NCBI GenBank assembly: GCA_016699875.1
Contig: CP064989.1
Span: 456,788-520,787, forward strand
Source: Candidatus Moraniibacteriota bacterium
GTDB taxonomy: Bacteria > Patescibacteriota > Minisyncoccia > Moranbacterales > UBA1568
Direction: 5' to 3'
DNA length: 64,000 nt
Part shown: positions 3,001-60,823 of the stretch, piece by piece
How positions within the stretch are numbered: position 1 is the stretch's first letter
Layout of the letters: every line of letters starts with the position of its first letter
Notes under the pieces: generated by a model
The model's input: the letters and a program-made list of their open reading frames with translations, nothing else
Databases searched by the model: none
What the model was told of the DNA's origin: nothing
Made by a program: the position numbers and the translations under genes

Positions 3001-3477
3001 CACCTTCATGCCGGACTGCACATCAACATCCAGACCGTGCAAAAATTTTGAAAAGACCAGCGCGAATCCTCGACTCAAAATCTTTCGCAATGCGCTTGTC
3101 TCTCGCTCGATCCGATTGGCAACGACGATGTCGGCTCCACCTTGCAACTTCGCATACATCTCGGGAAGCGCCTCGGGCGGATACTGCAGATCGGCATCAA
3201 TCATGGCGATCGTTTCGAAACGCACGTAGTCGAATCCTTCAAGGATAGAATGTGCCTTCCCTCGATGGCCTTTCTTGAGATAAAAAGAAGCGGGGTACGA
3301 TAGCGAAAGTTTTTCAACTTCCGACCGTGTCCCGTCCGTCGAATGATCATCGATGAAAATCACCTCGTACTCGATGTCCGCCGAGCGGAAAGACGCATCA
3401 AGACGGCGGACCAAGTCCGCCACATTGCCCTCCTCATTCAATGTCGGCACCAAAACCGAGATTCGCTCCCGCAGCAT
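1..3477 (-). CDS. Giant fused exopolysaccharide synthase, C-terminally truncated by the window edge. N-terminal GT2 (DPM1-like); central processive GT2 with D,D,D and QRSRW motifs; C-terminal MOP/Wzx-like multi-TM flippase domain.
   Basis: Manual reverse-complement translation from ATG at 3477..3475 (MLRERISVLVPTLNEEGNVADLV...) stays open with no stop down to position 1 (>1150 codons). Motifs seen: ...FIDDHSTDGT (GT2), ...YDAEDIPDPLQL..., NWIRQRSRWIKG (QxxRW), then a hydrophobic region with ...LLAKHFMSERGAGEYALLSLVGK... typical of Wzx/polysaccharide-biosynthesis (MOP) proteins. Not in the ORF track, presumably because no in-window stop exists. Confidence 0.7.
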   Translation of the reverse strand, partial: MLRERISVLVPTLNEEGNVADLVRRLDASFRSADIEYEVIFIDDHSTDGTRSEVEKLSLSYPASFYLKKGHRGKAHSILEGFDYVRFETIAMIDADLQYPPEALPEMYAKLQGGADIVVANRIERETSALRKILSRGFALVFSKFLHGLDVDVQSGMKVFRARIAREVKITPDPWTFDLEFLLTARNYGYEIGGHSIVFAERKSGESKIVFWKAIREIGWNALKLRFRERQPLHIHPEGAGAGKVSGMIGAGVAHRRKRFVTHSTLPHHASALHTFMPWQRIVLAGIVLALLVGIFVRPMSTLVAATAVLTSIYFFDVLFNAFFVVRSLKRPPEVSFSDKELAALRDEDLPMYSILCPLYREAHILPGFLEAIGKIDWPKEKLEALLLLEENDQETIQAATDMNLPSFVRVVVVPHSEPKTKPKACNYGLSMTRGEYVVIYDAEDIPDPLQLKKAYLGFQTLSRDVWCLQAKLNYFNSDQNILTRLFTAEYSLWFDVTLPGLQSVATSIPLGGTSNHFRREDLLSLEGWDPFNVTEDCDLGARIFTRGHRTSIIDSVTLEEANSKVGNWIRQRSRWIKGYMQTYLVHMRHPLKFFRDNGIHALLFQFIVGGKIAFMLINPILWLQTILYFSLRSIVGPTIEALYPPAIFYMAIVSLIFGNFLAMYYYMIGCAKREKWELMKWVFLIPFYWLLVSVAAVMAAYQLFVKPHYWEKTTHGLHLLKRKKKPVDAVSKKASPEDAANLPGSVLPISASVSPWNKRVLGIQNRFSWFVPGISAKSQFIDRISRGISSGAYSKILIAFAISAEGLFVVATFLSNILNFAFNAFLGRVLSFEVLGMVALLNTLWYLALVFISPFATTINREVSYLSARSGEKEALTFWASVMRIGLIASVFVTALWLFAVPALSRFFHVADALLLLSFTPLLAGGLLAFGNFGYLQGSLRFRAAAILSLIEAGSKLVFALGFVFFGSSEYAYLSIPASVVFAAFLSFFLIPGAGRSLIRDPQSRSFPIEFFSAAILVTVSTAMFTTVDVLLAKHFMSERGAGEYALLSLVGKVIFFLGTMPNMFMVTFVGRNRGLGKGTKKVFWIIYGLSSIVVAGSVLLLGFFDGVFSKFLFGEKISAVLPFLPIYAVAIAFFTLSTIIVTYHLARKRYVFVFATL

Positions 3478-3822
3478 GAACTTCACTCGTGGACAACCGT
3501 TTCAATACCAAAGAAATTCCCGAAAGACAGCCCTCTCAGTTTTTGTCTTTTCTGTATTTCCAACTGAAACGCGACGCAGCGTGCCCGAATATATGGATGA
3601 ACTCTGATGATATACTCTCGACTCCATGAGTGTCAATGTTGACGCGAATCGACTATTGGGATATGATCGCACCCTAAACAATTCCGTCCCTGAAAATTCC
3701 AGTAACTTCCCAGCTCAAAAAAGGAGCGCGTCATGCCCTCGCCTGGCAGTCATCCGCCAGCAAAAAGATCACTTCTCAAACAAACACACCCTGCCGAGAC
3801 AAATCGTTTCGGCAGTATTTTT

Positions 3823-5760
3823 TTATCGAATATCGCGGAAACTTTTCGTGAACGGCCGCTTAAAAAAGAGCACCCACAAATGGTTCACGGTATACACGGA
3901 TGCAGCACGAAACACGCCCTCGCGATTCAATCGGCGTCCCGATGTCCGCATCGGAAGAGAAAAGGTGAATCGAACACGCCCCTCCTTCTGAATACGGCGT
4001 GCAATATCCGTATCCTCTCCAAAAAAAGTGATAGTAACATCAAACCCGCCTATTTTTTCCAGAGCTGACCGTCTCAACACAAAGTTTCCACCTTGAATCA
4101 GCGCGCCCGATCGAAGCACGTGATGATTGAATAAATGAAAGAGAAAACCCGCCGAATAGTAGAGCCGTATGAAGAAATTCGTCACCGGCGAAATATCATA
4201 ATAAATGTATGGGCCGCTCAATGCCACTAAATTATTCTTCCTTGCAAACTCAGCCAAGACCCGATCAATCCACCCCTTCGGTATCAGAGAGTCCGCGTCG
4301 ATATTGGCGATAAGAGCGCCTCTCGACGCGAGGAATCCGGCCTGTCGTGCTCGAGAGAGACCCTTTTGCCATTCGTCTACGACGACAACTCCGGGAAACC
4401 AAAGCGCAATCTCCCGCGTTCGATCCGTACTCGCGTTGTTCACCACGATCACTTCGATACTCCGGCGACTCTCACTCACTCTCTGCAAGACCGTCCGAAG
4501 CGTTGTCTCAAGAAATTTCTCCTCATTGTATGCGGGAATGACAATACTGAGAACCGGCTCACCTGTCTCGGACACTTCTCCCAGAATCGTTCGGAATATT
4601 CGCTCCCATTCATTCGCAACCGCCGATGCGGAAAACTCGCGCACAAAGTTTCTCCCGTTCTCACCAAGCCGCATCATCTCTTCCGGATAAGAAAAAAGAT
4701 AGACCATTCTCTCCGCAAGACCAGCCGTATCGCCGGGAGCAACAATAAACCCGGCATTCTTTGGTACGTATTCCGGCAACCCATACGCATCCGCGGCAAT
4801 CACCGGCAATCCCGAAGCAAACGCATGCATCATGCTAAGGCACTGCGTCTCCGCTGTACTCATCACCGTAAAAATATCCGCCGCCCGATACACGTCGGAA
4901 AATTCCTCGCACTCCAAATAACCCAGAAAATGCACGCTTTCCTCTATGCCAAGCTTCTTTGCCAATTGTCGAAGCGACGGCTCGGCAGAGCCATGACCGG
5001 TAATGGCACACGAGATATCCGGAATCGATTTCTTAGCAATCGCCATCGCTCGAAGCACGACATCGATATTCTTTTCCTGCGCAAGCCGACCCGTGTAAAG
5101 AAGCGCATGTTCGGACAATCCGAATTTTTTCTTCAGTGCGACCTTTTCATCCGGAGAACCGCTTGAAGAAAAATCCGAAAGCTCCAACGGATTGGAAAGC
5201 ACGCGCGACTTCGAGCGAAAACCAAACGATTCCATTTCAGAGAGAAGCGCGCGGCACGGCGCACTTACGAAGACACAGTGCCGATAATACCAGTTCACAT
5301 ATTTCATCCCGGCGTTCTCGAGTCGCTTCCATCGGACCGGCGCATACTTGAGAAATTCGAGAAGCGGCGTGTGATTCGTTCCGACAATCATCTTTTTGAG
5401 AAGCTTCGATAGAAGAAGCGCTTCGAGTCCGGCGCCGAAGAAGAGCTGCGTATATATAATATCCGGATCAAATCTTTTGATATGCCGATAACTCGAAAGT
5501 ATCGGGAGTACGAGCCGCCCCTGCTTGGTCGGAGCCGCTTTGTACGGAAGTGAGAACAGTCGAAAAATTTCGATATTCTCGCCGAGATCCAATTCGCGAA
5601 ACGGCAATTTCGAAACAGCAAAATCGCGCCGCGAGTACCGCGGGACATAAAAAACGATTTTGTGTCCGCGTGCCGCGAGCTCCCTCGCGAGAGAGATAAT
5701 GGAATCGGATATCCCGCTCATCTCCGGATAGAAGTTGTCCGAAAATATCGCGATTTTCAT
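3823..5760 (-). CDS. Bifunctional glycosyltransferase: N-terminal GT4 (GT-B fold), C-terminal GT2 (GT-A, ...VLSIVIPAYNEEKFLETTLRTV...)
   Basis: ORF track frame 3823..5805. Start refined to MKIAIFSDNFYPEMSGISD at 5760 with GAGGTGA RBS 7 nt upstream. GT4 and GT2 signature stretches seen. Confidence 0.75.
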   Translation of the reverse strand: MKIAIFSDNFYPEMSGISDSIISLARELAARGHKIVFYVPRYSRRDFAVSKLPFRELDLGENIEIFRLFSLPYKAAPTKQGRLVLPILSSYRHIKRFDPDIIYTQLFFGAGLEALLLSKLLKKMIVGTNHTPLLEFLKYAPVRWKRLENAGMKYVNWYYRHCVFVSAPCRALLSEMESFGFRSKSRVLSNPLELSDFSSSGSPDEKVALKKKFGLSEHALLYTGRLAQEKNIDVVLRAMAIAKKSIPDISCAITGHGSAEPSLRQLAKKLGIEESVHFLGYLECEEFSDVYRAADIFTVMSTAETQCLSMMHAFASGLPVIAADAYGLPEYVPKNAGFIVAPGDTAGLAERMVYLFSYPEEMMRLGENGRNFVREFSASAVANEWERIFRTILGEVSETGEPVLSIVIPAYNEEKFLETTLRTVLQRVSESRRSIEVIVVNNASTDRTREIALWFPGVVVVDEWQKGLSRARQAGFLASRGALIANIDADSLIPKGWIDRVLAEFARKNNLVALSGPYIYYDISPVTNFFIRLYYSAGFLFHLFNHHVLRSGALIQGGNFVLRRSALEKIGGFDVTITFFGEDTDIARRIQKEGRVRFTFSLPMRTSGRRLNREGVFRAASVYTVNHLWVLFFKRPFTKSFRDIR

Positions 5761-5777
5761 AGTGTTCACCTCAAGAA

Positions 5778-8129
5778 TCAGTCCCGCTCCCCGCGAGCAA
5801 ACCAACGCGCAAGAACATATTGGAGAAGCGTATAGACGAATAATACCAAAGAAAACCTGACTGAGGCATCAGGAGAAATCGGCGGAATATCGATTTCAAA
5901 GAATCGCAAAACCAACGGGACATGAAGAGCTATCGGAAGCAATATCGCCTCGAAGAGCGCGAGCAGTACCAAATCTCTCATCTCCGAAGGCGCGAGCTTT
6001 CCCCGGAAAACCCTCGGGACAAAGAGGAAGAAAATAAATCCCAAAATAAGCGAAGCCAGAACGATGAGGAAATTCGACGGCGAATTTTTCAGCTGTTCGC
6101 CACTCAGAGCAAAGATAAATCCCAGAGCAACCGCCTGCAGCAATGACGACGAGACTACGAAAGGAAGTACTTTTCTCAAGAAATTTCCCGCATGCGCAGC
6201 AACTGCTTTCCCTGCCGGACGGATCGTCCAGTATGAGATAAGAATACTCGGGAAGCCGATAGTAAAATAATTGATAAGCGTCATATTGAGCGGCGTGAGC
6301 GGAAAGGCGTAGCCCAAAATACTGACCCACACGAAGAGAAAAAATCCCGTAAATGAAAAACTGAAAAAGATGCTTGCAAAAATCTCCGCGTTTTTGATAA
6401 TGCTGTCCGCCAATTCCACGCCGCCCGGAAGCGCCGTGAAACTATTGTTTGTCAACACAATCGAAGCAACCTGACGTGTCGCCGGAGCACCTTCAAACAT
6501 CGCGATACCGAGATCCGATTTCTTGAGCGCCAAAGCATCGTTCGCGCCGTCGCCCACCATCGCCGTAAATCCATCGTCTTTCAACGCTTCAACAATCCGC
6601 TCTTTCTGCTCGGGAAATATTCGCGCAAAAATAGTCGTATTCCGCACGCGATCTCCGAATTCTTCCTCTGTCCACTGATCGATATCCGCACCCGAGACCA
6701 CGCTGTCGGTTTCAAGAACACCTGCCGACCGAGCAATGGCCCGTACCGTCTCCGCATGATCGCCCGAGAGGATGCGAATACGCACTCCACGCTTCTGAAA
6801 GAACTCGATTGCTTCACGGATGCCCGGACGAAGCCGGCTCGAGAGAACGAAAACGCCGAGCAGAGAAAGTTTCGACTGCGCGATATCCTGAGGAATACCC
6901 ATACCATCCGAAAGGGCGATACAAAGAAGCCGATTCCCCTCACGAGCTTCCCGAGACAGGATGTCCTGCAGCCACGATTGTTCCGATGCGGCAATGAGCT
7001 GCGGGATCATTACTTCGGCAGCTCCCACCACGAGCACCATCGTATCTCCCGATACATCCCTAAATGACACTGCACCAAACCGACGCCACGAAGAGAAAGG
7101 CAGTCCATCAATTTTAACCCCCTTGAAAGAGTCATTGGTAAGAAGCTTCCGTACAGCAAGAGCGGTCTGAGATGTGTCATTTGTCCCATCAAGATATGCC
7201 GTCATGTATTCGAACGACTTCGCCTCCGGCGCACCGTCAACAGACAAAAACCGCTCCGCCGTGAGCCCGTTCTCACAAAGCGTTCCCGTCTTGTCCAGGC
7301 AGAGATTCTTGATACGCCCGAGTTTCTCCGTCGCATTCACTTCCTGCAGAAGCACGTGCCGGCGAAAAAGATGCGCCGCTCCATAAGCGAAGAGAAGCGT
7401 CATGCCGAATGCCAACCCCTGCGCCACGATCACGCTCGCGAGCGCGCCGACATGCTTCACGATATTCACATTCGACTCATGTGCCATGACACCGCGAAGA
7501 ACCGCAAAAGCAATGACAACGACCAGTACATACCCGGAATATCGGATCACCATATTGACCGACTTCTGTATCGGACTCTCGGCAACCGATGATCGCTGCA
7601 CTCCCTCCGTCATACGCGCAATGCGACTCTCGGCAAACACCGTCTCCGCCCGCATCAGACCGGCACCGGAGGTAATAATGCTTCCCGCAAGCACCCGCTC
7701 CCCCGCTCCGCGCGGCAACGATGTCGACTCGCCCGTAATAAGCCCCTCATTCAGCTCAAGTGATTCCGACGATACCAATACGCCGTCACACGGTATCTGA
7801 TCGCCCAAGCCGAGACGAAGCATATCTCCCTTCCGAACATCTTCCGTAAGAACGGATTCCTCGACACCGTCGCGAATACGATTCACATGCGGCGCCGTCA
7901 AAAGCTGGAGCTTTTCAAGCGCGCGCCACGCACGAATATCCTGTCCGAGACCAAGCAGCATATTGATCACGGTCACCAGCCCCAAGAACAATCCTGCCTG
8001 CCGATCACCAAATACAAAGAGAAGCGCCACGACTGTCAGGATAACGCCGTTTGTCAAAAGGAATACATTCCTCGATACGATATACCACAAATCCCGAATT
8101 TTTTTCACGCGCGGTGTCAGCATAAGCAC
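5778..8129 (-). CDS. P-type cation-transporting ATPase (P2-like; short N-terminus starting near TM1)
   Basis: Motifs ITGES (A-domain), CLDKTGTLCENG (DKTGT phosphorylation site), MVGDGANDALALKKSDLGIAM (hinge), multiple TM helices. 783 aa. Confidence 0.9.
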   Translation of the reverse strand: MLMLTPRVKKIRDLWYIVSRNVFLLTNGVILTVVALLFVFGDRQAGLFLGLVTVINMLLGLGQDIRAWRALEKLQLLTAPHVNRIRDGVEESVLTEDVRKGDMLRLGLGDQIPCDGVLVSSESLELNEGLITGESTSLPRGAGERVLAGSIITSGAGLMRAETVFAESRIARMTEGVQRSSVAESPIQKSVNMVIRYSGYVLVVVIAFAVLRGVMAHESNVNIVKHVGALASVIVAQGLAFGMTLLFAYGAAHLFRRHVLLQEVNATEKLGRIKNLCLDKTGTLCENGLTAERFLSVDGAPEAKSFEYMTAYLDGTNDTSQTALAVRKLLTNDSFKGVKIDGLPFSSWRRFGAVSFRDVSGDTMVLVVGAAEVMIPQLIAASEQSWLQDILSREAREGNRLLCIALSDGMGIPQDIAQSKLSLLGVFVLSSRLRPGIREAIEFFQKRGVRIRILSGDHAETVRAIARSAGVLETDSVVSGADIDQWTEEEFGDRVRNTTIFARIFPEQKERIVEALKDDGFTAMVGDGANDALALKKSDLGIAMFEGAPATRQVASIVLTNNSFTALPGGVELADSIIKNAEIFASIFFSFSFTGFFLFVWVSILGYAFPLTPLNMTLINYFTIGFPSILISYWTIRPAGKAVAAHAGNFLRKVLPFVVSSSLLQAVALGFIFALSGEQLKNSPSNFLIVLASLILGFIFFLFVPRVFRGKLAPSEMRDLVLLALFEAILLPIALHVPLVLRFFEIDIPPISPDASVRFSLVLFVYTLLQYVLARWFARGERD

Positions 8130-8401: not shown

Positions 8402-9460
8402 CTACTCTTTACAGAGCTCCTCAAACAGCCTTCGATCTTCATCGGTCAGTACCGGTTTCTGCTCGCCAACGGACGGATACATAATGGACGTACTCTCCGC
8501 CGCATGTCCAATGCCAAGCGCGTGCCCCATCTCATGCGCCAGAATAAGCACCAAGTCGTCGTGATCGTAGAACTGGAACACGTCGATATTCGCGCCGGAA
8601 GCATCTTTGGTATAGAGTCCGGTTGTAAATTCCTCGCGCGCGCCGGACACCTGGTTATACGTATCAACGGTCAAGTTGAGCGCGCTTGCCATGCGATTGA
8701 GACTCCCCGCCGCCGTATTCACCTGCCCGGAAAGCACATTGAGCGCAGCATATTCCTTCGCGAGCGCCGACTTCTCATCATTCAATCGCTTGCGTTCGTC
8801 ATCGATATCAGATGCCTCCTTCTTGAGATCCTTCCGCTCATCTTCCAATTCCTCATACTCGTCGGGAGGTGCACCGCCTTCGGCATTCCACTGCGCAACC
8901 AATCGCTCATACGATGCCAGTCGATCTTGATATTTCTCGACACGCCGTTCATAGTCGCGGAGCTTCTTCTCATACGAAGACACGTGTCCGTCATAGGCGA
9001 ATTTCTTCCCATCAAACTCTTTGCGGAGTGCATTATACTCGGAACGCAGCGACTCATAGGCGGATTTCCGGCTCTCGATATCCGATGATGTTTCTTTGAG
9101 AGAATCTGTTTCCGCCTGCCGATCATCAAAGACAAGATTGATCGGGATCGCATCGGTATCGGTGCTTTCCATAAGAAGGTCTCGACCGGTCCCCGATTCC
9201 CATATCGCCTCGGCCTCATGAATCGCCTTCAAAAACTCCGCTTCCGAGAGATGGAAATTCGGATCAATAGTCCCCACCCGATACTCAAGCGGAAACCGAC
9301 ACGAATCATCAAGTGCCGGAATCACTTTGGAGAGCACTGCCCGAGAAGAAGACACTGTTGGCATCTTCCCCGTCTTCAGAGCAAATACGACTGCAAATGA
9401 AGACGCCAAGACAACTAAGGAAAGAAGAACAGCTCGAATCGTTCGAAAGAAGAATGCCAT
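8402..9460 (-). CDS. Secreted or membrane-anchored zinc metalloprotease, metzincin/matrixin-like, with central coiled-coil region
   Basis: N-terminal hydrophobic signal/anchor (MAFFFRTIRAVLLSLVVLASSFAVVFA). Long charged heptad-like segment (KEFDGKKFAYDGHVSSYEKKLRDYERRVEKYQDRLASYERL...). C-terminal HEMGHALGIGH (HExxHxxGxxH) followed by Met-turn SIMYP. Confidence 0.7.
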   Translation of the reverse strand: MAFFFRTIRAVLLSLVVLASSFAVVFALKTGKMPTVSSSRAVLSKVIPALDDSCRFPLEYRVGTIDPNFHLSEAEFLKAIHEAEAIWESGTGRDLLMESTDTDAIPINLVFDDRQAETDSLKETSSDIESRKSAYESLRSEYNALRKEFDGKKFAYDGHVSSYEKKLRDYERRVEKYQDRLASYERLVAQWNAEGGAPPDEYEELEDERKDLKKEASDIDDERKRLNDEKSALAKEYAALNVLSGQVNTAAGSLNRMASALNLTVDTYNQVSGAREEFTTGLYTKDASGANIDVFQFYDHDDLVLILAHEMGHALGIGHAAESTSIMYPSVGEQKPVLTDEDRRLFEELCKE

Positions 9461-9574
9461 ACGAAAAACACCTCACTCAAATGGAAATCCCTTAGCGGAG
9501 TCAAAAGTATGCGGACCAACCACAATCAGCTCTTGTTGTCCCGCCTATTAAAACCATGCTACCATACCGGTACT

Positions 9575-10096
9575 ATGAATAAAATATCCAAGAAATTGCG
9601 CATCGGCTGGTTCACCTTCACCTGCTGCGAAGACAGTACCGTCATCTTCACCGAGATCATGAACGATCACTTCGAGACCTGGCGCAAAGTGCTTGATATC
9701 CGCCATGCGCGCGTCCTCCAGACCAAGAACGTGCTCGACGAACTCGACGTCGCCTTCGTCGAGGGTGCGATCAATTCCGCCGAGCAAGAAGAAAAACTCA
9801 AAGAAATCCGCGCCAAGTCCAAGAAGCTCGTCGCGATCGGTGCCTGCGCCTGTACCGGCATGCCAAGCGCGCAAAGAAACGCCTTCCCTCCCGAACTCAA
9901 AGACAAGATTCAGTTTCTCCTCGACCGCTTCAACCAAGGCGAAAAGGTAAAGAAACTCGACGAAGTCGTCACCGTCGACGAACGCGTCCAGGGCTGTCCC
10001 ATGACCGAATCCGCCTTCCTCGCCGTCGTCAACAAAATGCTCACCGAATTCGACATCATCCCTCAGGCAGAGACGGAAGCAAAAGATCAGGCATGA
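9575..10096 (+). CDS. [NiFe]-hydrogenase small subunit, minimal with proximal cluster only; NuoB-like CC motif
   Basis: Internal start MNKISKKLRIGWF at 9575 (ORF track frame 9509..10096). Motifs FTFTCCEDS, VAIGACACTGMP, VQGCPMTE, parallel to the NuoB/group-4 small-subunit CC...GxCAxxG...GCPP pattern. 174 aa. Confidence 0.7.
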   Translation: MNKISKKLRIGWFTFTCCEDSTVIFTEIMNDHFETWRKVLDIRHARVLQTKNVLDELDVAFVEGAINSAEQEEKLKEIRAKSKKLVAIGACACTGMPSAQRNAFPPELKDKIQFLLDRFNQGEKVKKLDEVVTVDERVQGCPMTESAFLAVVNKMLTEFDIIPQAETEAKDQA

Positions 10097-10209
10097 GGAT
10101 CCGGCAGAGGCAACACATTCCATGCCCAATTTCTTTGCAGGAAAGAATTCATTTCAAATTTCCCAACTTCCTGTCGTCAGTTGTTCATTGTAAGTTGTGA
10201 GTTAATCCT

Positions 10210-11589
10210 ATGCATCAAATATCCGAACTCAGCCAATTCTCAATCGAAGAGCTTACCAAAGTGGAAGGCGCTGCCGGACTCAATGTGTTTATCGAAAATG
10301 GAAAGGTGCAAAAAGTGGAATTCGCCATCAAAGAATTCAAGCGTTTCTACACGCACGCCATGGAAGGCAAACCGATCGCAGCGATTCCTCAGCTCCTTGC
10401 GCGCATCTGCGGTACCTGTTCGAACGCACACCTCGTCGCAAGCATCGAAGCCGTCGAGAAGACGCTCGGCATTGTTCCGAGCGAGCAGACCATGCTTCTG
10501 CGCACCCTTACCTATCATGGACTCATCATTCGCGATCATGCGCTCCACCTCTACCTCTTCTGTCTTCCCGACTTCTTCGGCAAAGACTCGCTCTTGGGAT
10601 TTGATGATGACGACCCCATACAACACCAGCTCCTCCATGACGCCTTCGCCGTGAAAGCCGCCGGCAACCACCTCGCAATCGCCGTCGCCGGGCGAAGCGT
10701 CCATGCGCCCCTCCCCATGCCCGGCGGCTTCGGAAAAACTCCCGATACGAAGTCCATCACTGAAGTCATCATCGAACTGGAAAACATTCGCCCGGCAGTG
10801 CTCCGCCTCATCAAAGTCTTTACCGACGATCCGTCATCACTCGTCCGAAAAAGCAACTACGCCGCCCTCCGCAACAGCAAATTTTCCTACCTCGAAGGCG
10901 ACCTCTGGGATATGAAAGGATTCGTCGTTGACGAGGCGGGCTATCGCGACCATCTAGAGCACGTTGTCCTGCCATACTCCCAAGCTTCCGCCTACACGTT
11001 CGACGGCGAAACCTACCGCGTCGGCGCGATCGCTCGACTCAACATCAATAGCTCCGGCCTCCACCCACGCACCAAACACGACGCCGCAGAGGCGATCGCA
11101 CTGTTCCCTTCCAACAATATCTTTCACAACAATCTCGCCCAGGCGATCGAAATCCTCCACTCCGTCGACGAAGCGATTGATCTCCTCAAACAGAAAACCT
11201 TCCAGCCCGAACCGCCACAGAAAATCGTCCCGAAAGCCGGCATCGGCGTAGGACTTGTCGAGGCGCCCCGTGGCGCGCTCTACCACAAGCTCGAAGTAAA
11301 CGACAAAGGCATCGTCGAGCGCGGCGAGGTCGTCGTCCCGACCGGTCAAAACCAGATCGCCATCGAACTCGACCTCATCCAATTCATCAATGAGCACATG
11401 GACATGGAGGAGTCCGCCATAAAACTCGAGTGCGAAAAAATAATCCGCGCCTACGACCCCTGCATGTCCTGCGGCGCCCACTTCCTCGAACTCAAAATGA
11501 GCACCAACGGCTCGAGGCTCAAAAAGGTAATTTCAAAGAAACAAGCCGCCAAAAGTGACCCACAAAAACATCTCCCACATCATCACTAG
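10210..11589 (+). CDS. [NiFe]-hydrogenase large subunit
   Basis: N-terminal L1 motif RICGTCSNAH (RxCGxCxxxH) and C-terminal L2 motif DPCMSCGAH (DPCxxCxxH), followed by a ~35 aa C-terminal extension, the usual substrate of the maturation endopeptidase. Confidence 0.9.
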   Translation: MHQISELSQFSIEELTKVEGAAGLNVFIENGKVQKVEFAIKEFKRFYTHAMEGKPIAAIPQLLARICGTCSNAHLVASIEAVEKTLGIVPSEQTMLLRTLTYHGLIIRDHALHLYLFCLPDFFGKDSLLGFDDDDPIQHQLLHDAFAVKAAGNHLAIAVAGRSVHAPLPMPGGFGKTPDTKSITEVIIELENIRPAVLRLIKVFTDDPSSLVRKSNYAALRNSKFSYLEGDLWDMKGFVVDEAGYRDHLEHVVLPYSQASAYTFDGETYRVGAIARLNINSSGLHPRTKHDAAEAIALFPSNNIFHNNLAQAIEILHSVDEAIDLLKQKTFQPEPPQKIVPKAGIGVGLVEAPRGALYHKLEVNDKGIVERGEVVVPTGQNQIAIELDLIQFINEHMDMEESAIKLECEKIIRAYDPCMSCGAHFLELKMSTNGSRLKKVISKKQAAKSDPQKHLPHHH

Positions 11590-11613: not shown

Positions 11614-11650
11614 AAACGCCCGCTAAAAAAGCTGGCGTTTTATCGTTTGC
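11614..11650 (+). terminator. Intrinsic terminator after the hydrogenase genes
   Basis: Hairpin AAACGCC...GGCGTTT followed by a T-rich tract (tatcgtttg) immediately after the large-subunit stop. Confidence 0.5.
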
Positions 11651-11688: not shown

Positions 11689-12009
11689 TTATCGAAGCGG
11701 AAATAGCATCCTCTCCCATTCGCTTCTTCCGGGAAGAACACCGAGAGGTGCCATAATTGCCAGTCCACCGAAATAGCAGACTATCAGTGAAAGCGAGAAA
11801 AAACCTCTCCATGGAAATTTGTTCCAGTCAGAATCAGACAGAAGAAAAAGAGCAAAGTAGAAGAAAAGAACAAACAACATTATACAGAGACATACAAACC
11901 AAACCCACCCGTAGAAAGTAGGTGGCAAGTCTCCCTGGCTAGATCGCCATCCTTTCAATTCAAGACAACGCTTCTCGACCCCGCGAGAAAAGAACCGCCC
12001 TTCCGCCAT
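11689..12009 (-). CDS. Small hypothetical membrane protein
   Basis: ORF track. Two hydrophobic helices (WVWFVCLCIMLFVLFFYFALFLL; FFSLSLIVCYFGGLAIMAPLGVL). No recognisable domain. Confidence 0.3.
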   Translation of the reverse strand: MAEGRFFSRGVEKRCLELKGWRSSQGDLPPTFYGWVWFVCLCIMLFVLFFYFALFLLSDSDWNKFPWRGFFSLSLIVCYFGGLAIMAPLGVLPGRSEWERMLFPLR

Positions 12010-12189: not shown

Positions 12190-12609
12190 TCATCTTAGCA
12201 CTGTCGCCAGCTCCCGAATGACATCCGGAAGCGCCTGTTCCTCACTCATACTTTCCGGCACGCCGAGGATATTCGGTTCAAAGGACGGATCGAGCTTCTT
12301 CGCGAGGAGAAGCAATGTCGAGAGATCGTAGTCGTGTGCCGTCATCCCGGCATTGCGGGATCGGGCAATGTCATCGACTGAGAGCCACGATACTTTCTCA
12401 AGTCCTCGAACCGTGTCGAGGATAACCCACTTTCCCCGCTTCGGCAAGTCTATTTCATTGGGGTCTTCAATAACAAAACGTGCGTGCGGAAATCGTATCC
12501 GAAGATTCGGAACCAATTGCACCGGCACGCTATCCGAAGAAAGATCCGGATTGCCAAAAACCGATACCGAAAACGCCTCGTTATTTCTTTCGCTCATAGG
12601 CATTGGCAA
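12190..12609 (-). CDS. Putative hydrogenase maturation endopeptidase (HycI/HybD/HoxW family, peptidase A31-like), divergent
   Basis: Alignment-by-eye to the family pattern. SVFGNPDLSSD matches the GxGN..D N-terminal motif; VILDTV matches the conserved D in ..DAI.; MTAHDYDL matches the PHQ/H..L His motif; NILGVPESMSE matches the VGVxPESL motif. About 139 aa, as expected for the family. Confidence 0.5.
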   Translation of the reverse strand: MPMPMSERNNEAFSVSVFGNPDLSSDSVPVQLVPNLRIRFPHARFVIEDPNEIDLPKRGKWVILDTVRGLEKVSWLSVDDIARSRNAGMTAHDYDLSTLLLLAKKLDPSFEPNILGVPESMSEEQALPDVIRELATVLR

Positions 12610-13423
12610 AGGCGATGCTCTTCAATGTATATGCACGCAATCGAGCGACGGTTTGCTCCGAAAGCGTCTCGCACGGCACGCCCCAGTGAATCGACACCCA
12701 TGCGCCGGGCGCGAGCAAATCGATATCGATATCCGCGGAAAGATCGCGCACCAGCCGGCGAGAAACAGGGTGGCCAAGAAAAAACGCTCCGCGCTCATCG
12801 CGAACAAGCGGCTCCGTAACGACATCGATAAACGGCCCGGAAACGGCAGCAACCTTCCCCCAGCTCACGATGCACTCGGCAACCGCCGTCCAGTCACCAT
12901 CATGAAGCAACTCGTGATTTGTCTCACGCCACACATTGAGCACATGAAATGAGTGGTGTGGAAAACCGCCTCGCACCACCTTTTGCCCGATCGTGTCGAA
13001 TCGCTCCCGCCCCGTCTTTTTCTTCACCTCGAGCGCATCGAGCAATCCCAAATATTTTCTCGGTGAAAATGCGTCGAGCAAACGATTACCGATCCAATAT
13101 GCCTCGACCACCTTGTCATCAAACGGATCACGAATACCGTTCCCCTCCGCGATATGTGAGAGATACGGATAAAGATTTTGAAATCGCTCAAGGATAGCCG
13201 AAAGTCGCGGATCGCTCTCGCCCGCGTCCAAATATTCCTTCATCGTTTTGTTCGCGTCGGGCCCGCAGTAGTGCAGCCGATTCGGCCCGAATGCATACCG
13301 GCTGCATCGAAACACTCCATCCATATCTTTCCACTCTACGCGAACCCCAAAAAAAGCGCAAAAAACACGCCTAACCAGAAACCAGTTAGGCGCATGCCGA
13401 ATGCTAGAGTCAGACTGACGCAA
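12581..13423 (-). CDS. Hypothetical protein with conserved Cys/His clusters (CSRYAFGPNRLHYCGP; FPHHSFHVLNVW; HELLHDGDW)
   Basis: ORF track. Probable true start is the internal M at MDGVFRCSRY (~13324). No family recognised. Adjacent to, and co-oriented with, the putative hydrogenase protease. Confidence 0.4.
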   Translation of the reverse strand: MRQSDSSIRHAPNWFLVRRVFCAFFGVRVEWKDMDGVFRCSRYAFGPNRLHYCGPDANKTMKEYLDAGESDPRLSAILERFQNLYPYLSHIAEGNGIRDPFDDKVVEAYWIGNRLLDAFSPRKYLGLLDALEVKKKTGRERFDTIGQKVVRGGFPHHSFHVLNVWRETNHELLHDGDWTAVAECIVSWGKVAAVSGPFIDVVTEPLVRDERGAFFLGHPVSRRLVRDLSADIDIDLLAPGAWVSIHWGVPCETLSEQTVARLRAYTLKSIAFANAYERKK

Positions 13424-13775
13424 CGATGCGACTCACCAGAGCACGGATATCTGCACGGCATTCACCTATCCTCTTAAGGATGTTCCCCTCACCCAAGAAG
13501 AAACAACCAAGAATCTCCCTATTACACTCCATGGCCAGTGCATTTATCTTGAATTCCAGCAAAATGAAGTCTGTCCGAGTAAAAGGTATCCTCCCATCCA
13601 AACACGCATAATGATTGCCATCATCAACAAGTTCTTCAAGAGAACTCAGGGTATTTACGACAAAACTATGTAATCCTCCCAACGCCAGCAAAGTAGCAGC
13701 CGCAGGATCTCGCTTGAAACTTATAGAGGAAGATACATCTAAAGGAAAAAGGGTGCCGCGGGAAGCCGGAGTCAT
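13410..13775 (-). CDS. Hypothetical protein (weak call)
   Basis: ORF track only. No motifs. Region GC slightly low. Confidence 0.2.
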   Translation of the reverse strand: MTPASRGTLFPLDVSSSISFKRDPAAATLLALGGLHSFVVNTLSSLEELVDDGNHYACLDGRIPFTRTDFILLEFKINALAMECNREILGCFFLGEGNILKRIGECRADIRALVSRIVASV

Positions 13776-13894
13776 GACATTCTCTCCTTTCTTTTGGTTG
13801 ATGTTAAGAAACGTAAAACAAACTCAATTCGTGGATATTATACATCGAAATATACGTTGTGTCAATGAGCATAAACAGATGTACTGAGGTCATC

Positions 13895-15736: not shown

Positions 15737-17647
15737 TCATTCTCCCGTAAGACTCTTGAGCAGAGCGCTAAGTCGCATCGATGCGACGCCGACCACGCGA
15801 TCAGCACCGCCATAATATATGAAGATTTTTCCGGCATGAAGCGTCGCACCGCAAGGAAAAACAACATTCGGAACAATGCCGACTTTCTCGTATTCCATTT
15901 CCGGCTCGAAAAGAGGCGAATCACTCCTTGCGAGCACGCGCTCCGGGTGATCGATATCGAGCAAGGCCGCGCCCAGCCGATACACCGACCCCTCGCTCGA
16001 AACACCGTGATACAAAAGAAGCCATCCGCGATCAGTCCGGATCGGAACCGTATTGAGTCCGATTTTTTGATCATCCCACATACCCTGCCTCGGCAGAATA
16101 AATGGGCTTTGCGATAACATCGATCCTCCGGAAAACTCCAGATCATCAAAGAAGTTAATGTCTATCGACGGTTGTATCCGATGAAGCACCACGTATTTCC
16201 CACGAATCTTCTCCGGGAAAACACAAGCGTCCTTGTCATCGATACCCGGTGGCGATATAAGCTTCGGCAATGTCCAACGATGCCACTGTTTCGCGAGAAA
16301 TTCTTTTCGCCCAAGAGAAGTAATCGCCACACGGGGAGCATTCGCCCCATCCACTGCCGTGTAGAACATAAAAATCGTATCGTCGATGCGTGTGAGTCGC
16401 GGGTCCTCGCATCCGGAATAGCCTCCGCCAGCCCGCATCTCAAAAGGCTCCCGCGGCACATAGGCCGGCTCCGAGCTTCGCTCGTCAATGGTCAAACCGT
16501 CACGGCTCGACGCATATCCAAAGACCGATGTATCGCCATTCGAAAGCGCGCGATACATAATATGCGTTCTCCCGCCATCCCGGATAACCCCCGGATTGAA
16601 TACTCCTTTCGCCTCCCAAGCATGCTCCGAAACAGGCGAGAGAACGGGATTCTTCGGAGCGCGCTCGAAGGAGAGTTTTCTGTTTGGATACGAAAGCGAC
16701 CGAAGCAACTTCTTCGCGTCACACGTGGCAACACAGCAAGTCGAGTCGGCTGCACCGTAGTAAAGAAACAATTTTCCACGACGAAGAATAGCTCCTGACG
16801 GAAAAACAATATTCGGAACCTTTCCATACAATTCATACTCTTCTTCGGGCACAAGAAGCGGCGCATCGGTCCTCGCAAGTATTTTTCGCGGGTCACTTCG
16901 ATCAAGGAGAACCGCCTCAATGCCGAATATCTTTCGCTCAGTAAAATAATTCCGTATATGCGAATAAATCAAAAGCCACCCGTCTTCCGTGAGGAGAGGT
17001 GAAGCACCGATCTCAACATGATCGGAATCGCCCCGTTGAAGTCGAATCTCATGCGCCGAAAGATTCGAATACCATGCATTCCAATATGCTTCGGACCATA
17101 TATCTTCAATGCTATCAAACAAAGCAAGCCCGATGGTGGATGGCGGACGATCGGTATTTGCCGTCAATATCGCCGCAAATTTCCCATTCACCTTCTCCGG
17201 GAAAAGCGTCATGGCTTTCGCATTGAAAGGCGTTACCAAGTGCTTCTCATCCACTCTTCGGAGATCTTTTGAAAGCGCTACCGCCACTTTTATTCCTTCT
17301 GCTGAAAACGGGTATGTCGAAAGCGCCGTATAGAAAATATAATAGGTTCCATCTATCGCTGTGACACGGGGATCCTCGCATCCGAATCGTTCCCATGATT
17401 CTTCAGGAAGAATAAATTGGCGATGTTTCTCAAAATGAATCCCATCAGCACTCATGGCACATCCGATCGAAGACACTTCATACGTTTCTCCTTCGTGCAG
17501 TACTCGCGACGACTGCGCCCGATACACCAGATCAATCCACTTTCCCCTCTGCACCGGACAGCCGTTAAACGCTGCGGATCGCTCCCAAAAATTTCCACTC
17601 TCCCCAACCAGAACCGGATTCTCATTCGATCGTTCAACTCGAATCAT
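15737..17647 (-). CDS. Double-module GH130 family glycoside hydrolase/phosphorylase (two tandem GH130 beta-propeller modules in one 636 aa protein)
   Basis: Two copies of GH130-like signatures: FNGCPV...GCEDPRVTAIDGTYYIFYTA, and GVFNPGVIRDGGRTHIMYRA...GCEDPRLTRIDDTIFMFYTAVDG...DKDACVFPEKI. Confidence 0.75.
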   Translation of the reverse strand: MIRVERSNENPVLVGESGNFWERSAAFNGCPVQRGKWIDLVYRAQSSRVLHEGETYEVSSIGCAMSADGIHFEKHRQFILPEESWERFGCEDPRVTAIDGTYYIFYTALSTYPFSAEGIKVAVALSKDLRRVDEKHLVTPFNAKAMTLFPEKVNGKFAAILTANTDRPPSTIGLALFDSIEDIWSEAYWNAWYSNLSAHEIRLQRGDSDHVEIGASPLLTEDGWLLIYSHIRNYFTERKIFGIEAVLLDRSDPRKILARTDAPLLVPEEEYELYGKVPNIVFPSGAILRRGKLFLYYGAADSTCCVATCDAKKLLRSLSYPNRKLSFERAPKNPVLSPVSEHAWEAKGVFNPGVIRDGGRTHIMYRALSNGDTSVFGYASSRDGLTIDERSSEPAYVPREPFEMRAGGGYSGCEDPRLTRIDDTIFMFYTAVDGANAPRVAITSLGRKEFLAKQWHRWTLPKLISPPGIDDKDACVFPEKIRGKYVVLHRIQPSIDINFFDDLEFSGGSMLSQSPFILPRQGMWDDQKIGLNTVPIRTDRGWLLLYHGVSSEGSVYRLGAALLDIDHPERVLARSDSPLFEPEMEYEKVGIVPNVVFPCGATLHAGKIFIYYGGADRVVGVASMRLSALLKSLTGE

Positions 17648-17691
17648 ATCGTTTCCATTTAGAAAAATCTTGAACGTCGAACACCTGCAAC

Positions 17692-19548
17692 CTACTCGTC
17701 CCCCAATTTCACATACCGTGTCGGCACTACCTTATTCGAATGAAGCAGCGCATCAAGCAACCGAGCAATCGGCACAGTCGCCACACACGTCACCGTATCG
17801 GCACTTCCATAGTATACAAAAAGTGTTTCATCCTTCACAACCGCCCCACAACTATAGACAATGCGAGGCTTTGTCCCCTCGTTTTCATACCACACCTTCG
17901 GTTCAAGAATTGCCGCCTTTGATCGGGCAATCACTTTCGTCGGATCCTTCTTATCAAGAATCATCGCTCCGAGTTTGTATCCGCAGTCCCGAGTTGTCGC
18001 ATGGTAGAGCACGAGCCACCCCTCTTTTGTTTTTATCGGCGACGGACCGACACCGCGCACAAGCAATTCCCATCGTCCCTTAAGTGGCGTCTTAACATGC
18101 TCGCTTTTGATAAAAGTCTCTCCGTCAAAATCGAGATTGTCGAGATAATCGATGCGCACTTCGGGGCTGATGCTATGAAGCACAGCAAACCTCCCGTGAA
18201 TTTTCTCGGGGAATATGGTCCAGTTTTTGTGAATTTCCCCAGGCGGCGAAATCATCACCGGGCGCGACCAATTCCATTTTTTCGCCAAAAAGTCATCAAC
18301 GGAAATCTTTGTAAGCGCCACTCGCGGAAAATTATACCCATCAAATGCAGTGTACGTCATATAGAGCGTATCCTCGATACAGGTCACTTTCGGATCCTCG
18401 CTTCCTCCCCATCCGCTACCGGAAGCATACGGCGTCGTACATGACTCTTGAATCCTCGTTACCTTCACATCATCGAGGGTTGGCGAAGAAACATAGATGG
18501 GCACATCAAGTCGCTCATGTATCGAGAAACCGTCACGACTATTGGCGTAGCCGACCGTCGACAAACCATTCTTTCCGATCGCACGGTAGAGAATATGCAC
18601 CATGCCATCATCAGAAAGGAACGCTGCCGGATTAAAGACCTCGCCCGCCTCCCAATCATACTCCTTTCGAGAAGCAAGAATGGGATTTCCCGCATAACGT
18701 TCGAGCTTCATGCTATCGGGAACAACGGACACCGAAGCATTTCTGGAAACTTTCCAAAATTGAGCGATTTCTTCCACAAACAGCTTCCCATCAACACTCC
18801 AATACACGAGGACTTTCTTCGCCCGCAAGACAGACCCGATATACCGCACATCCTTCCCAATCCACGAATCGGGAGACTCCCACAGAGCTTCCTCCGACCG
18901 CCAGAGAATCGTTTTCGGATTCTCTTTCTCTGCCAAAGCAGAACCGAGAAGCCATCGCCCATCATGAGTTTCGGAAGCGTACAGAAGAATAATTCCATTC
19001 CCGGCAGGAATCGCCGCCACAAGACGTATCGGCCCCTCGTCGAAATATCCTTCGCGAGGTTTCAAAATTGCCGAGCGCTTTATATTCCAATGTTTCAAAT
19101 CGGTCGATACTGCCAATTTCACAGTACGCTCGCCAAAGAAAAACCCATACTTTTCTCGCCCTGCTTGCAAAGAAACAACTCTTCCCGTCTCGCGCAAACC
19201 TTCTATGTCCGAGATATCGCTCCATTCAATGCCATCGGAAGAAAACCCTGATGCACTTCGAAAAGTACCATCACTTGTCTTTCTCTTACAAGAAAGAAAA
19301 AAAGAATCTTCCGCAGAAGAAATTTCCGAAATACAAAAAACATCCGAAATATCCGGACGCAGACGAAGACTCCCCAAAAGTCTCGTAAAAATAAACTCTT
19401 TCTGTATTGGCTCAAAGGAGATTCCGTCCAAACTACTCAGAACAGATATTGGCCGATTCGATTTCCCTTGGGAATCACGCACATAGAGATATACATTCTT
19501 CCCAACTGACGAAACTCCAAGAACCGAACGGTCCAGAGAACGCTCCAT
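17692..19548 (-). CDS. Second double-module GH130 family protein (paralogue of 15737..17647)
   Basis: EVFNPAAFLSDDGMVHILYRA...GSEDPKVTCIEDTLYMTYTAFDG...HKNWTIFPEKI, plus an N-terminal second module. 618 aa. Confidence 0.75.
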   Translation of the reverse strand: MERSLDRSVLGVSSVGKNVYLYVRDSQGKSNRPISVLSSLDGISFEPIQKEFIFTRLLGSLRLRPDISDVFCISEISSAEDSFFLSCKRKTSDGTFRSASGFSSDGIEWSDISDIEGLRETGRVVSLQAGREKYGFFFGERTVKLAVSTDLKHWNIKRSAILKPREGYFDEGPIRLVAAIPAGNGIILLYASETHDGRWLLGSALAEKENPKTILWRSEEALWESPDSWIGKDVRYIGSVLRAKKVLVYWSVDGKLFVEEIAQFWKVSRNASVSVVPDSMKLERYAGNPILASRKEYDWEAGEVFNPAAFLSDDGMVHILYRAIGKNGLSTVGYANSRDGFSIHERLDVPIYVSSPTLDDVKVTRIQESCTTPYASGSGWGGSEDPKVTCIEDTLYMTYTAFDGYNFPRVALTKISVDDFLAKKWNWSRPVMISPPGEIHKNWTIFPEKIHGRFAVLHSISPEVRIDYLDNLDFDGETFIKSEHVKTPLKGRWELLVRGVGPSPIKTKEGWLVLYHATTRDCGYKLGAMILDKKDPTKVIARSKAAILEPKVWYENEGTKPRIVYSCGAVVKDETLFVYYGSADTVTCVATVPIARLLDALLHSNKVVPTRYVKLGDE

Positions 19549-44614: not shown

Positions 44615-44688
44615 TGGAGCGAGAGACGGGAATCGAACCCGCATATCTAGCTTGGAAGGCTAGCGTACTACCACTGTACTACTCTCGC
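44615..44688 (-). tRNA. tRNA-Gly (anticodon UCC) with encoded CCA
   Basis: Hand-folded: acceptor GCGAGAG/CUCUCGC, D-arm GUAC-AGUGGUA-GUAC, anticodon stem CUAGC/GCUAG with loop CUUCCAA, T-arm GCGGG-UUCGAUU-CCCGU, discriminator U, CCA. 74 nt. Confidence 0.85.
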
Positions 44689-45546: not shown

Positions 45547-45581
45547 ATTTCCGAACCAACAAGTAACACATCTTTTCTCTG

Positions 45582-45652
45582 TCGGGCCGCTGGGAATCGA
45601 ACCCAGTCTACATGCTCCCAAAGCACGCGTACTACCGGTATACGACGGCCCG
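45582..45652 (-). tRNA. tRNA-Pro (anticodon UGG), no encoded CCA
   Basis: Hand-folded: acceptor CGGGCCG/CGGCCCG, anticodon stem CGUGC/GCAUG with loop UUUGGGA (G37), T-arm ...GGGUUCGAUUCCC..., discriminator A. 71 nt. Confidence 0.8.
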
Positions 45653-45698
45653 AACCTTCCTATCACCTCTCCGACTTTTCCAGAGTACCAGCGAGTCC

Positions 45699-45728
45699 GA
45701 AAAAGCACAAATCCCCCGGAAGGGGGAC
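45699..45728 (-). terminator. Intrinsic terminator after HU
   Basis: TCCCCC-ggaa-GGGGGA hairpin with an A-rich tract on the plus strand (U-tract on minus) 3' of the HU stop. Confidence 0.55.
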
Positions 45729-58536: not shown

Positions 58537-58633
58537 AATTACTTCACTTCATATGCTCTACTAAAACAAAAGGGGACAGAACAATCTATGCTATTTCCTC
58601 TTTTTCCATTACGGTCCCAGTGAACAACTATTC

Positions 58634-59455: not shown

Positions 59456-59492
59456 ATGCAAGAAAAAATCCGCATCACACAAGAGACATTCG

Positions 59493-59786: not shown

Positions 59787-59810
59787 ACGAGTAAAGCTAA
59801 AGAAAATAAA

Positions 59811-60641: not shown

Positions 60642-60823
60642 GAACTCAGTATATCACAATCACTGAAAACTCGAAAAAATACCACCTCTGTCAAGCGCCA
60701 GATTTACTCGAGCTCATATCTCCCACTCCCTATTTTCCATCTTCTGCACATTTCCAACTCCAAACCAAAACGCCCCCGACAGTATGCCGGAAGCGCCTTT
60801 GGAAAGAAACCTTCGAAGAATTC

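Follow-up and report, generated by a model that had tools for sequence, protein, structure and literature searches.

A two-subunit [NiFe]-hydrogenase of the hyd2 clade, with a tandem-cysteine small subunit and a convergent accessory operon, in a Candidatus Moraniibacteriota genome

We describe an intact two-subunit [NiFe]-hydrogenase encoded in a 64,000-nucleotide stretch of Candidatus Moraniibacteriota DNA (GenBank assembly GCA_016699875.1, contig CP064989.1, positions 456,788 to 520,787 of the forward strand; hereafter the window). By its sequence the enzyme is a member of hyd2, a group-3b-related clade of hydrogenases from the Candidate Phyla Radiation (CPR), and we judge this membership on the defining features of the published clade. 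We put the probability at roughly 60% that our model holds as a whole, that is, that the genes encode a functional cytosolic hyd2 hydrogenase that is coupled to ferredoxin. The proteins of the locus are exact matches to the NCBI entries QQS16165 to QQS16168, which lie on a contig of 1,088,644 bp from a Candidatus Moraniibacteriota metagenome-assembled genome (MAG). The large subunit is named there; the small subunit as well as the putative protease and the DUF6390 protein encoded next to the hydrogenase are each annotated as 'hypothetical protein'.

The large, catalytic subunit is encoded on the plus strand at positions 10210 to 11589 (459 amino acids, aa; QQS16166.1) and matches the Pfam family NiFeSe_Hases (PF00374) with an E value of 9e-27. 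It carries the motifs RICGTCSNAH at aa 65-74 and DPCMSCGAH at aa 416-424, which contain the four NiFe ligand cysteines C67, C70, C418 and C421. In a 17-sequence alignment these cysteines and an EAPRG motif are invariant, as are T16, K17, E19 and G20 of an N-terminal TKVEG motif. Both NCBIfam and the solved structures point to group 3b. The NCBIfam scores are 237 bits for ShyA, 212 for HydA, 132 for VhuA and 100 for FrhA. Among solved chains, the group-3b alpha subunit 5yxy_A matches residues 11-426 with an E value of 1.7e-59 and 9nez_D follows with 3e-58; overall, 3b chains match at 1e-57 to 1e-59 versus 1e-43 for 3c and 1e-29 for 3d. An earlier, preliminary description of this DNA had seen motifs of groups 1 to 3 in the large subunit, and our results narrow this down to group 3, closest to 3b.

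The small subunit is encoded on the same strand at positions 9575 to 10096 (173 aa, QQS16165.1) and matches the Pfam family Oxidored_q6 (PF01058) with an E value of 6e-20. Its motifs are FTCCEDS at aa 15-21, GACACTG at aa 89-95 and GCPM at aa 140-143; C17, C18, C91 and C141, all conserved, are therein the candidate cluster ligands. The protein aligns just to residues ~4-160 of the 256-266 aa delta chains of sulfhydrogenases, and judging from this alignment it holds the proximal Fe-S cluster domain only. Both open reading frames (ORFs) are intact and all motifs quoted in the preliminary description are there, including the adjacent cysteines. It also recognized the single proximal domain correctly, and only its length for the small subunit (174 aa) was one residue too long.

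How close is the enzyme to characterized sulfhydrogenases? All scores are far under the NCBIfam equivalog cut-offs: 237 versus 700 for ShyA and 212 versus 880 for HydA in the large subunit, and 53 versus 500 and 39 versus 460 for the delta families ShyD and HydD in the small subunit. The window enzyme is therefore, as far as its sequence goes, a relative of sulfhydrogenase rather than an orthologue.

To place the enzyme among its relatives we scanned one genome of each GTDB species with a sequence pattern. At least 595 species genomes were found to hold a relative, and the 80 best matches show 53-95% identity. All usably named records are Patescibacteria/CPR. The named hosts are Moranii-, Paceibacterota, WWE3, Uhr-, Komeili-, Azam-, Lloyd-, Kerfeld-, Wolfe-, Vogel- and Yanofskybacteria, among others; some records with the automatic titles 'uncultured Bdellovibrionales' or 'uncultured Gammaproteobacteria' are evidently mislabelled MAGs. 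We compared 87 loci, namely the window, six loci from exact-protein look-ups and 80 from the species-genome scan, with ~10 kb of sequence available on each side. Without three duplicates among them, 84 non-redundant loci remain. Neighbour families were defined in these 84 loci by all-against-all clustering of the ORFs up to 7 kb from the large subunit. DUF6390 was counted with a hidden Markov model (HMM) instead, because fusions with EamA link unrelated genes in the clustering.

The group-3b-related hydrogenases of CPR bacteria split into two clades, hyd1 and hyd2 (Jaffe et al. 2020, BMC Biol 18:69; PMC7304191). According to the same study, hyd2 sits on a long branch, has a small subunit of 164 aa on average and lacks co-located beta and gamma subunits. 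A flavoprotein (PF07992) and an Fe-S protein occur near some hyd2 loci, HypC-like proteins are found in their context, and the 'function remains uncertain' (PMC7304191). The window enzyme agrees with hyd2 in all essentials: its host belongs to the CPR, its catalytic subunit is 3b-related, its small subunit is truncated (the median of the family is 168 aa) and no beta or gamma subunit lies nearby on the same strand. Relatives with 56% identity and the same architecture occur in Azambacteria and Lloydbacteria genomes that were part of the set of Jaffe et al. (loci L069 and L082).

A regular group 3b enzyme would look different. The large subunit is indeed closest to 3b references. A 3b delta subunit, however, would be about 250-260 aa long and carry three clusters, and the window protein has 173 aa. 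Moreover, we found no beta- or gamma-like subunit of group 3b among the 48 long ORFs of the window scanned by Pfam, and no such family among the conserved neighbours of the 84 loci. Hence, what the preliminary description called mixed signatures of unclear classification resolves into a set of features that hyd2 enzymes share. That description had named a known subgroup routinely showing the tandem cysteines as the outcome that would speak against it, and, judged on features, hyd2 is such a subgroup.

The best-scoring relatives of both subunits are the group 3b sulfhydrogenases I and II of Pyrococcus furiosus and Thermococcus kodakarensis (5yxy, 9nez, 9e15). With the window enzyme they share the two nickel-iron motifs, L1 and L2, and a C-terminal peptide after DPCxxCxxH. 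The sulfhydrogenases are tetramers with a beta subunit (Fe-S) and a gamma subunit (FAD, NAD(P)), whereas the window enzyme has two subunits and a single predicted cluster. Their delta chain has the proximal motif SCYGC (CxxC) in 256-266 aa; the window small subunit has CC in 173 aa. In length, the small subunit is more similar to those of the group 3d enzyme HoxHY (5xf9_C, 189 aa) and of Acetomicrobium mobile HydABCSL (7t2r_E, 179 aa), which are likewise about 170-190 aa long. These hold the proximal cluster only and pass electrons straight to the next protein. The homology is weaker, with 59 and 39 bits, respectively. HoxHY and HydABCSL are also fixed parts of complexes that resemble NADH dehydrogenases and are encoded in the same operon, and nothing of the kind is conserved near hyd2.

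The two consecutive cysteines of the small subunit are a family trait. Among 80 full-length small subunits in which this position is covered, 76 have F(S/T)CCED(S/N) and three have CSED, and one sequence is masked and unreadable. The cysteines of GxCA and GCPM are practically invariant. The preliminary description had compared the motif with NuoB and with group 4 small subunits. The first comparison holds, but only locally, and the second does not. In our alignment E. coli NuoB has CC at this position (SCCYVEM) and the group 4 protein HycG has CxxC (CNGCEIE). The paper on the structure of the formate hydrogenlyase complex agrees, stating outright that consecutive cysteines, typical of cluster N2 of complex I, are missing in membrane-bound hydrogenases (PMC9474812). 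Even the likeness to complex I (NuoB, Nqo6, NDUFS7) is limited. Two consecutive cysteines are followed in both by GxCA and GCP(P/M), yet the context is CCxxEM in NuoB and CCED(S/N) in hyd2, and the partner of NuoB lacks a NiFe site and sits on membrane subunits.

One could argue that hyd2 is nevertheless a module related to group 4 or complex I, whose membrane subunits are encoded elsewhere in the genome. The consecutive cysteines are otherwise typical of cluster N2, and CPR genomes also hold Ehr-type genes related to group 4 (PMC7304191). We find this explanation barely credible. When the hyd2 small-subunit profile is compared with solved chains, it scores 71 bits with 3b delta, 61 with MvhG (3c), 59 with HoxY (3d) and 57 with FrhG (3a), and only 25 bits with Nqo6 of complex I and 20 with MbhJ of group 4. 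The large subunit is 3b-like over its whole length, and no membrane subunit is conserved near hyd2 across the 84 loci. Apart from the two cysteines, neither the overall affinity nor a membrane association fits such a module.

Intermediate forms of the motif suggest that the tandem cysteines are of local origin. We searched 1.84 billion representative proteins exhaustively and found CCED(S/N), the hyd2 type, in 43 representatives. The canonical xCxxC was found in 42, most of them 240-270 aa long and some ~150-170 aa. A combination of the tandem cysteines with CxxC, CCxGC, occurs in 13 representatives, in short and long forms alike; six have CSED, with a single cysteine at position 17, and five have CDEGC (CxxxC). 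Cluster look-ups gave no taxonomy for the CCxGC type. Because CCxGC forms exist among the group-3-like relatives, the CC motif appears to be derived from CxxC. These sequences are most simply read as a ligand swap in small subunits of the group-3-like kind, in which a cysteine would have been gained at position 17 before the cysteine at position 21 was lost. The CCxGC forms also suggest that the motifs of hyd2 and NuoB are independent in origin and would thus be convergent. The CSED proteins (P0347, P0349, P0353, P0373, P0388 and P0400; three of the loci) keep Cys17 and have lost the other cysteine, which in the alignment is the counterpart of the universally conserved first ligand. Some small-subunit domains lie within longer proteins of 289-859 aa (P0347, P0350, P0353, P0459); these could be fusion proteins or artefacts of gene calling.

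The hydrogenase genes are not as isolated as they appear from their own strand. A terminator-like hairpin with a T-run follows at 11621 to 11647 (plus strand; found by consensus scan only), 32 nucleotides past the stop codon of the large subunit. Beyond it, a minus-strand operon converges on the hydrogenase. It starts from a match to a sigma-70-type promoter at 13837 to 13865 (minus strand; TTGACA-17-TATAAT, 12/12 to the consensus, but no more than a match) and contains, in order, a 121-aa ORF, a DUF6390 gene and a protease gene. The neighbourhood plots in PMC7304191 include same-strand genes only. The 121-aa ORF (13410 to 13775, minus strand), by position the first gene of the operon, has no assigned function; it has no Pfam or NCBIfam match, matches itself alone among the 87 loci and is lineage-specific. 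Between the hydrogenase and the protease gene there is a further 106-aa ORF with two hydrophobic stretches (11689 to 12009, minus strand), which is probably spurious. It, too, matches itself alone among the 87 loci. The locus tags IPK84_02320, 02330 and 02335 leave one free slot, for the large subunit, so the 106-aa ORF is probably unannotated at NCBI.

The protease gene (12190 to 12597, minus strand; 139-aa ORF, 'p139', 135 aa as QQS16167.1) appears to encode a divergent maturation endopeptidase of the HycI/HybD type. Of the 57 loci whose downstream flank covers 3 kb or more, 55 have it just 3' of the large subunit, and wherever it is found it lies on the strand opposite to the hydrogenase. 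G18, N19, D25, D64, H91, D92 and D94 (numbering of the 139-aa ORF) are invariant. The sequence evidence for its identity is weak but consistent: 28 of 42 family members match Pfam HycI (PF01750) at E<=1, the best with 4e-5, and a search of the family profile against PDB sequences matched nothing relevant. The AlphaFold2 (AF2) model has a predicted local distance difference test score (pLDDT) of 78.6. Its best Foldseek match is HybD of T. kodakarensis (5ija_A; E 6e-5, template modelling (TM) score 0.65), and 3pu6 and E. coli HycI (2e85_B) are also matched. Like our other AF2 models, it was built on a shallow alignment of database matches. H91 aligns with the histidine of the THN motif of E. coli HycI, which we take to be a metal ligand of that enzyme. 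D25, D64 and H91 may plausibly be the counterparts of the metal triad of the endopeptidases. With HycI and HybD the protein shares the predicted fold and a position beside a C-terminally extended large subunit.

The likely substrate of such a protease is present. After H424 the large subunit continues for 35 aa (window positions 11485 to 11589) in a Lys-rich tail that ends in PHHH, as the preliminary description had noted for the extension as such. In relative P0002 the tail ends in HTHHHHG; in most relatives only ~9 residues (FLKVNWxx) follow DPCxxCxxH. A His-rich tail that is presumably cleaved could serve to recruit nickel. With E. coli HypA and HypB as queries, we found no homologue of either in any of the 87 loci.

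The DUF6390 gene (12581 to 13324, minus strand; 247 aa, QQS16168.1; PF19927, E 3e-48) overlaps the start of the protease gene with its stop codon by 17 nucleotides. The protein consists of an N-terminal helical domain rich in Cys and His and a C-terminal beta-barrel that in our model looks like HypC, with its OB fold and C-terminal helix. C7, C20, C151, C218, H18, H124, H127 and H213 are invariant and H123 nearly so. The AF2 model has a pLDDT of 77.5; most of residues 151-240 score 82-96, but the stretch 191-200 falls to 66. Foldseek finds HypC as the best match (2z1c_B; E 1.6e-3, probability 1.0, TM score on the target 0.65, 27% identity over 96 columns), and 2ot2 is also found. HMMER aligns 'CRVSWGKVlevdGP' of DUF6390 with 'CLAVPGKVIEVNGP' of HypC, pairing C151 with Cys2 of HypC, and 'PGDlVSIHWG' with 'PGDWVIVHTG'. 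With HypC and HybG it shares the predicted fold and a conserved Cys and His, and DUF6390 adds a Cys/His-rich domain of 150 aa. A literature search on DUF6390 found no papers.

The distribution of the two families across the loci points in the same direction. DUF6390 was found in 48 loci, and none of these has a canonical HypC within ~10 kb on either side. Conversely, a canonical short HypC lies beside hyd2 in seven non-redundant loci, and none of these has DUF6390. The uncorrected hypergeometric chance of this exclusion is ~0.002, with the seven HypC loci representing only about three clades. Hence, we consider the mutual exclusion suggestive rather than strong.

Hyp genes themselves can be found next to hyd2 enzymes. 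In two Moraniibacteriota-type loci without DUF6390, whose large subunits are both 67% identical to that of the window, the hydrogenase is adjoined by HypC, HypD, HypE and HypF (L015, directly beside it at 2630-7523) or by HypD, HypE and HypF (L021, 16-3725). Therefore, the standard cofactor pathway serves hyd2 in at least some genomes. L015 also contains a DsbD_2-cupredoxin-HMA fusion gene (8938-10281). In the window we found no canonical hyp gene, either with Pfam among the 48 long ORFs or with the profile and motif scans that we ran besides, and literature searches on hyp genes in CPR bacteria yielded nothing usable. The preliminary description of the hydrogenase as an orphan without flanking hyp genes is thus right about the canonical genes; it overlooked the HycI-like protease and the HypC-like DUF6390 protein that adjoin the large subunit.

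A transporter of the EamA (DMT) family is another frequent neighbour. It is found near the hydrogenase in 35 of the 84 loci and is absent from the lineage of the window. In about half of the cases the EamA ORF adjoins or overlaps that of DUF6390 or is fused with it (examples of EamA genes are L005 12393-13289, L058 11627-13318, L061 11705-13384 and P0291), and in the loci with canonical HypC it adjoins HypC. We know of no nickel transporter in the DMT family. A distant DUF6390 paralogue of ~150 aa is encoded 3' of the large subunit in the same orientation; the gap is 16-200 bp in nine loci and ~2-3 kb in three more, and this gene, too, is absent from the window lineage. The family (e.g., L042 5228-5686, L037 11367-11828) has no Pfam match, matches one DUF6390 member with E 3e-4 and shows a similar C...GxV / IH pattern; most of its members are found in loci without DUF6390. 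Finally, in Paceibacter-type and Komeilibacteria loci the position of DUF6390, next to the protease on one side and EamA or HypC on the other, is occupied by a 252-aa protein without Pfam match (L005 11648-12406, also L025, L027 and L028). We rejected it as a DUF6390 protein, as there is no detectable relation.

One could go further and regard the whole ensemble as a private, streamlined system of CPR bacteria: a HydSL hydrogenase with complex-I-like tandem cysteines, DUF6390 in place of HypC, and an EamA transporter that is often adjacent or fused. The swap to CC, possibly via CCxGC, could then tune the potential or the proton coupling for exchange with ferredoxin, and DUF6390 would be the Fe(CN)2CO carrier or a chaperone of the large subunit in the place of HypC. 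This reading is tentative and, in this full form, rather unlikely.

Clues to the electron partner of the enzyme come from other genomes. As stated in the preliminary description, there is no diaphorase, ferredoxin or membrane subunit near the genes, and we found none in the whole window, either with Pfam among the 48 long ORFs or with profile and motif scans. The most frequent neighbour of hyd2 apart from accessory genes is a flavoprotein of the Pyr_redox_2 type (28 of 84 loci), often directly upstream of the small-subunit gene and in the same orientation. Its best NCBIfam matches are the ferredoxin-NAD+ reductases PadH, AndAa and HcaD. Most loci with this flavoprotein also hold the gene for a single-cluster ferredoxin of ~86 aa (Fer4_15/Fer4_13; 21 loci), which lies upstream of the flavoprotein gene, directly so where we checked (e.g., in L034). 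Divergent from the small subunit are the genes for the alpha (16 loci) and beta (15 loci) subunits of a 2-oxoacid:ferredoxin oxidoreductase (OFOR), adjoined by an ADP-forming acetyl-CoA synthetase (14 loci). A NifU-like scaffold gene is found in nine loci at variable positions. Of the 35 loci in which both flanks reach 7 kb or more, 17 have at least one ferredoxin, reductase or OFOR gene. These families reproduce and extend the remarks of Jaffe et al. on fam013 and fam390 (PMC7304191). Because ferredoxin, its reductase, OFOR and acetyl-CoA synthetase are the neighbours of hyd2 in other CPR lineages, a free ferredoxin is the most likely electron partner.

Alternatively, hyd2 could be coupled directly to NAD(P)H through a flavoprotein encoded elsewhere, as a split enzyme of the 3b or 3d type that does without ferredoxin. 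Chains of group 3d and of the bifurcating enzyme of A. mobile are among the PDB matches (5xf9_C, 7t2r_E), and in both of these enzymes a small subunit that holds just the proximal cluster docks onto a diaphorase module. That a Pyr_redox_2 flavoprotein is the commonest neighbour also fits. We nevertheless think direct coupling quite improbable, since a ferredoxin gene accompanies this flavoprotein in most loci and the best matches of the flavoprotein are reductases that require ferredoxin. The candidate proposed in the preliminary description, the FNR-like gene at 44830, does not help. It encodes a generic flavin reductase of the FNR family without Fe-S domain, is located between tRNA genes 33 kb from the hydrogenase, and just one of the 87 loci contains a homologue of it near hyd2. 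We therefore rejected it. The ORF as called (44830 to 45708, minus strand) overruns tRNA-Pro (45581 to 45652, minus strand), with tRNA-Gly (44615 to 44688) on its other side; its true start is probably the Met of MQTFSTKV, which gives ~238 aa.

Our model can be summarized as follows. Hyd2 would be a reduced relative of the group 3b, sulfhydrogenase-type enzymes, with a standard NiFe(CN)2CO site in its large subunit. The adjacent DUF6390 protein would act as a HypC-type chaperone for this subunit, and once the metal is inserted the adjacent HycI-like endopeptidase would remove the C-terminal tail. The small subunit would have lost the domain for the medial and distal clusters and kept one [4Fe-4S] cluster on C17, C18, C91 and C141. 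Because that domain is lost, the single cluster would exchange electrons directly with a free-standing soluble carrier, most probably a small single-cluster ferredoxin. Ferredoxin would link hyd2 to OFOR, so that in fermentation reductant from oxoacid oxidation is vented as H2, while acetate and ATP are formed via the ADP-forming acetyl-CoA synthetase. Alternatively or additionally, a FAD-dependent ferredoxin-NAD+ reductase may equilibrate hyd2 with NAD(P)H. The pair of ferredoxin and reductase would then be a non-homologous, unbundled functional analogue of the beta/gamma module of group 3b.

Several points weigh against this model. Above all, the partnership with ferredoxin is argued from gene neighbourhoods in other CPR lineages. 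Ferredoxin, reductase and OFOR genes are absent from the other 18 of the 35 well-flanked loci, among them the window and every well-flanked locus of the Moraniibacteriota type, and none lies beside the enzyme in the closest, Moraniibacteriota-type loci (L001-L027). In the 64 kb of the window we found neither these genes nor hyp genes; profiles of the neighbour families (ferredoxin, reductase, OFOR, acetyl-CoA synthetase, NifU and the short DUF6390 paralogue) have no match, and regular-expression scans for Fe-S motifs hit spurious ORFs only. The set of cluster ligands is made uncertain by the few relatives with CSED, which have a single cysteine. The nearly invariant Glu/Asp after CC could also take part in cluster ligation; carboxylate ligation of the proximal cluster occurs in the F420-reducing hydrogenase of group 3a (Frh). 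As for maturation, the window protease reaches 15.8 bits with PF01750, under the cut-off of 23. Pfam HupF_HypC (PF01455) stays under threshold for DUF6390, with weak matches in nine of 36 members (best E 0.012), and the cysteine equivalent to that of HypC is internal (C151), whereas it is N-terminal in every characterised HypC. Finally, hyd2 enzymes are known from sequence and models alone.

Could the enzyme then have no role in energy metabolism at all? It might be an H2 sensor or regulator, or the decaying remnant of a 3b enzyme that has lost beta and gamma. No partner is linked to it in this lineage, CPR genomes are reductive, and Jaffe et al. left the function of hyd2 open (PMC7304191). 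We consider this very unlikely, for the following reasons. First, identity remains high across the 80 best species genomes, as given above, and the catalytic residues are invariant. Second, a putative dedicated protease and chaperone are kept in nearly every locus. Third, the large subunit retains a presumably cleavable C-terminal tail, which regulatory hydrogenases are not known to have. Fourth, no regulator gene is conserved nearby in the 84 loci.

Our literature searches were limited and found no later work on hyd2 than Jaffe et al. 2020. Within that scope, three aspects go beyond PMC7304191, which contains neither the family-wide CCED motif nor the opposite-strand module of protease, DUF6390 and EamA nor the adjacency of OFOR and acetyl-CoA synthetase. 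The first is the tandem-cysteine motif throughout the family and its apparent derivation from CxxC. The second is the convergent module of protease and DUF6390, often with EamA, together with the probable likeness of DUF6390 to HypC and its exclusion with HypC. The third is the neighbourhood of oxidoreductase and acetyl-CoA synthetase genes.

Most of the long ORFs in the window are on the minus strand; the plus strand holds few, the two hydrogenase genes being among them. The GC skew is negative in all 2-kb bins of the window and adds up to -5.3. The proteins of two tandem genes at 15737 to 19548 (minus strand) both contain a GH130 (mannooligosaccharide phosphorylase) domain and are ~620-640 aa long; the pair is conserved at the same position in relative L001. 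At 57427 to 61348 (minus strand) four paralogous genes form an array, and all of them encode a T4SS_pilin domain (PF18895).

For the locus in the window, our result is mainly its correct filing under a published clade. For the family the consequences could be wider, because hyd2 is the sole type of hydrogenase in many Patescibacteria. If it is indeed ferredoxin-linked and evolves H2, it would explain how fermentative episymbionts dispose of the reductant from 2-oxoacid oxidation. If DUF6390 has a role like that of HypC, this domain of so far no assigned function gains one. The tandem-Cys cluster is a natural comparison with cluster N2 of complex I, and an enzyme of two subunits and a single predicted cluster, with few dedicated accessory genes, would be an attractive minimal scaffold for biochemistry.

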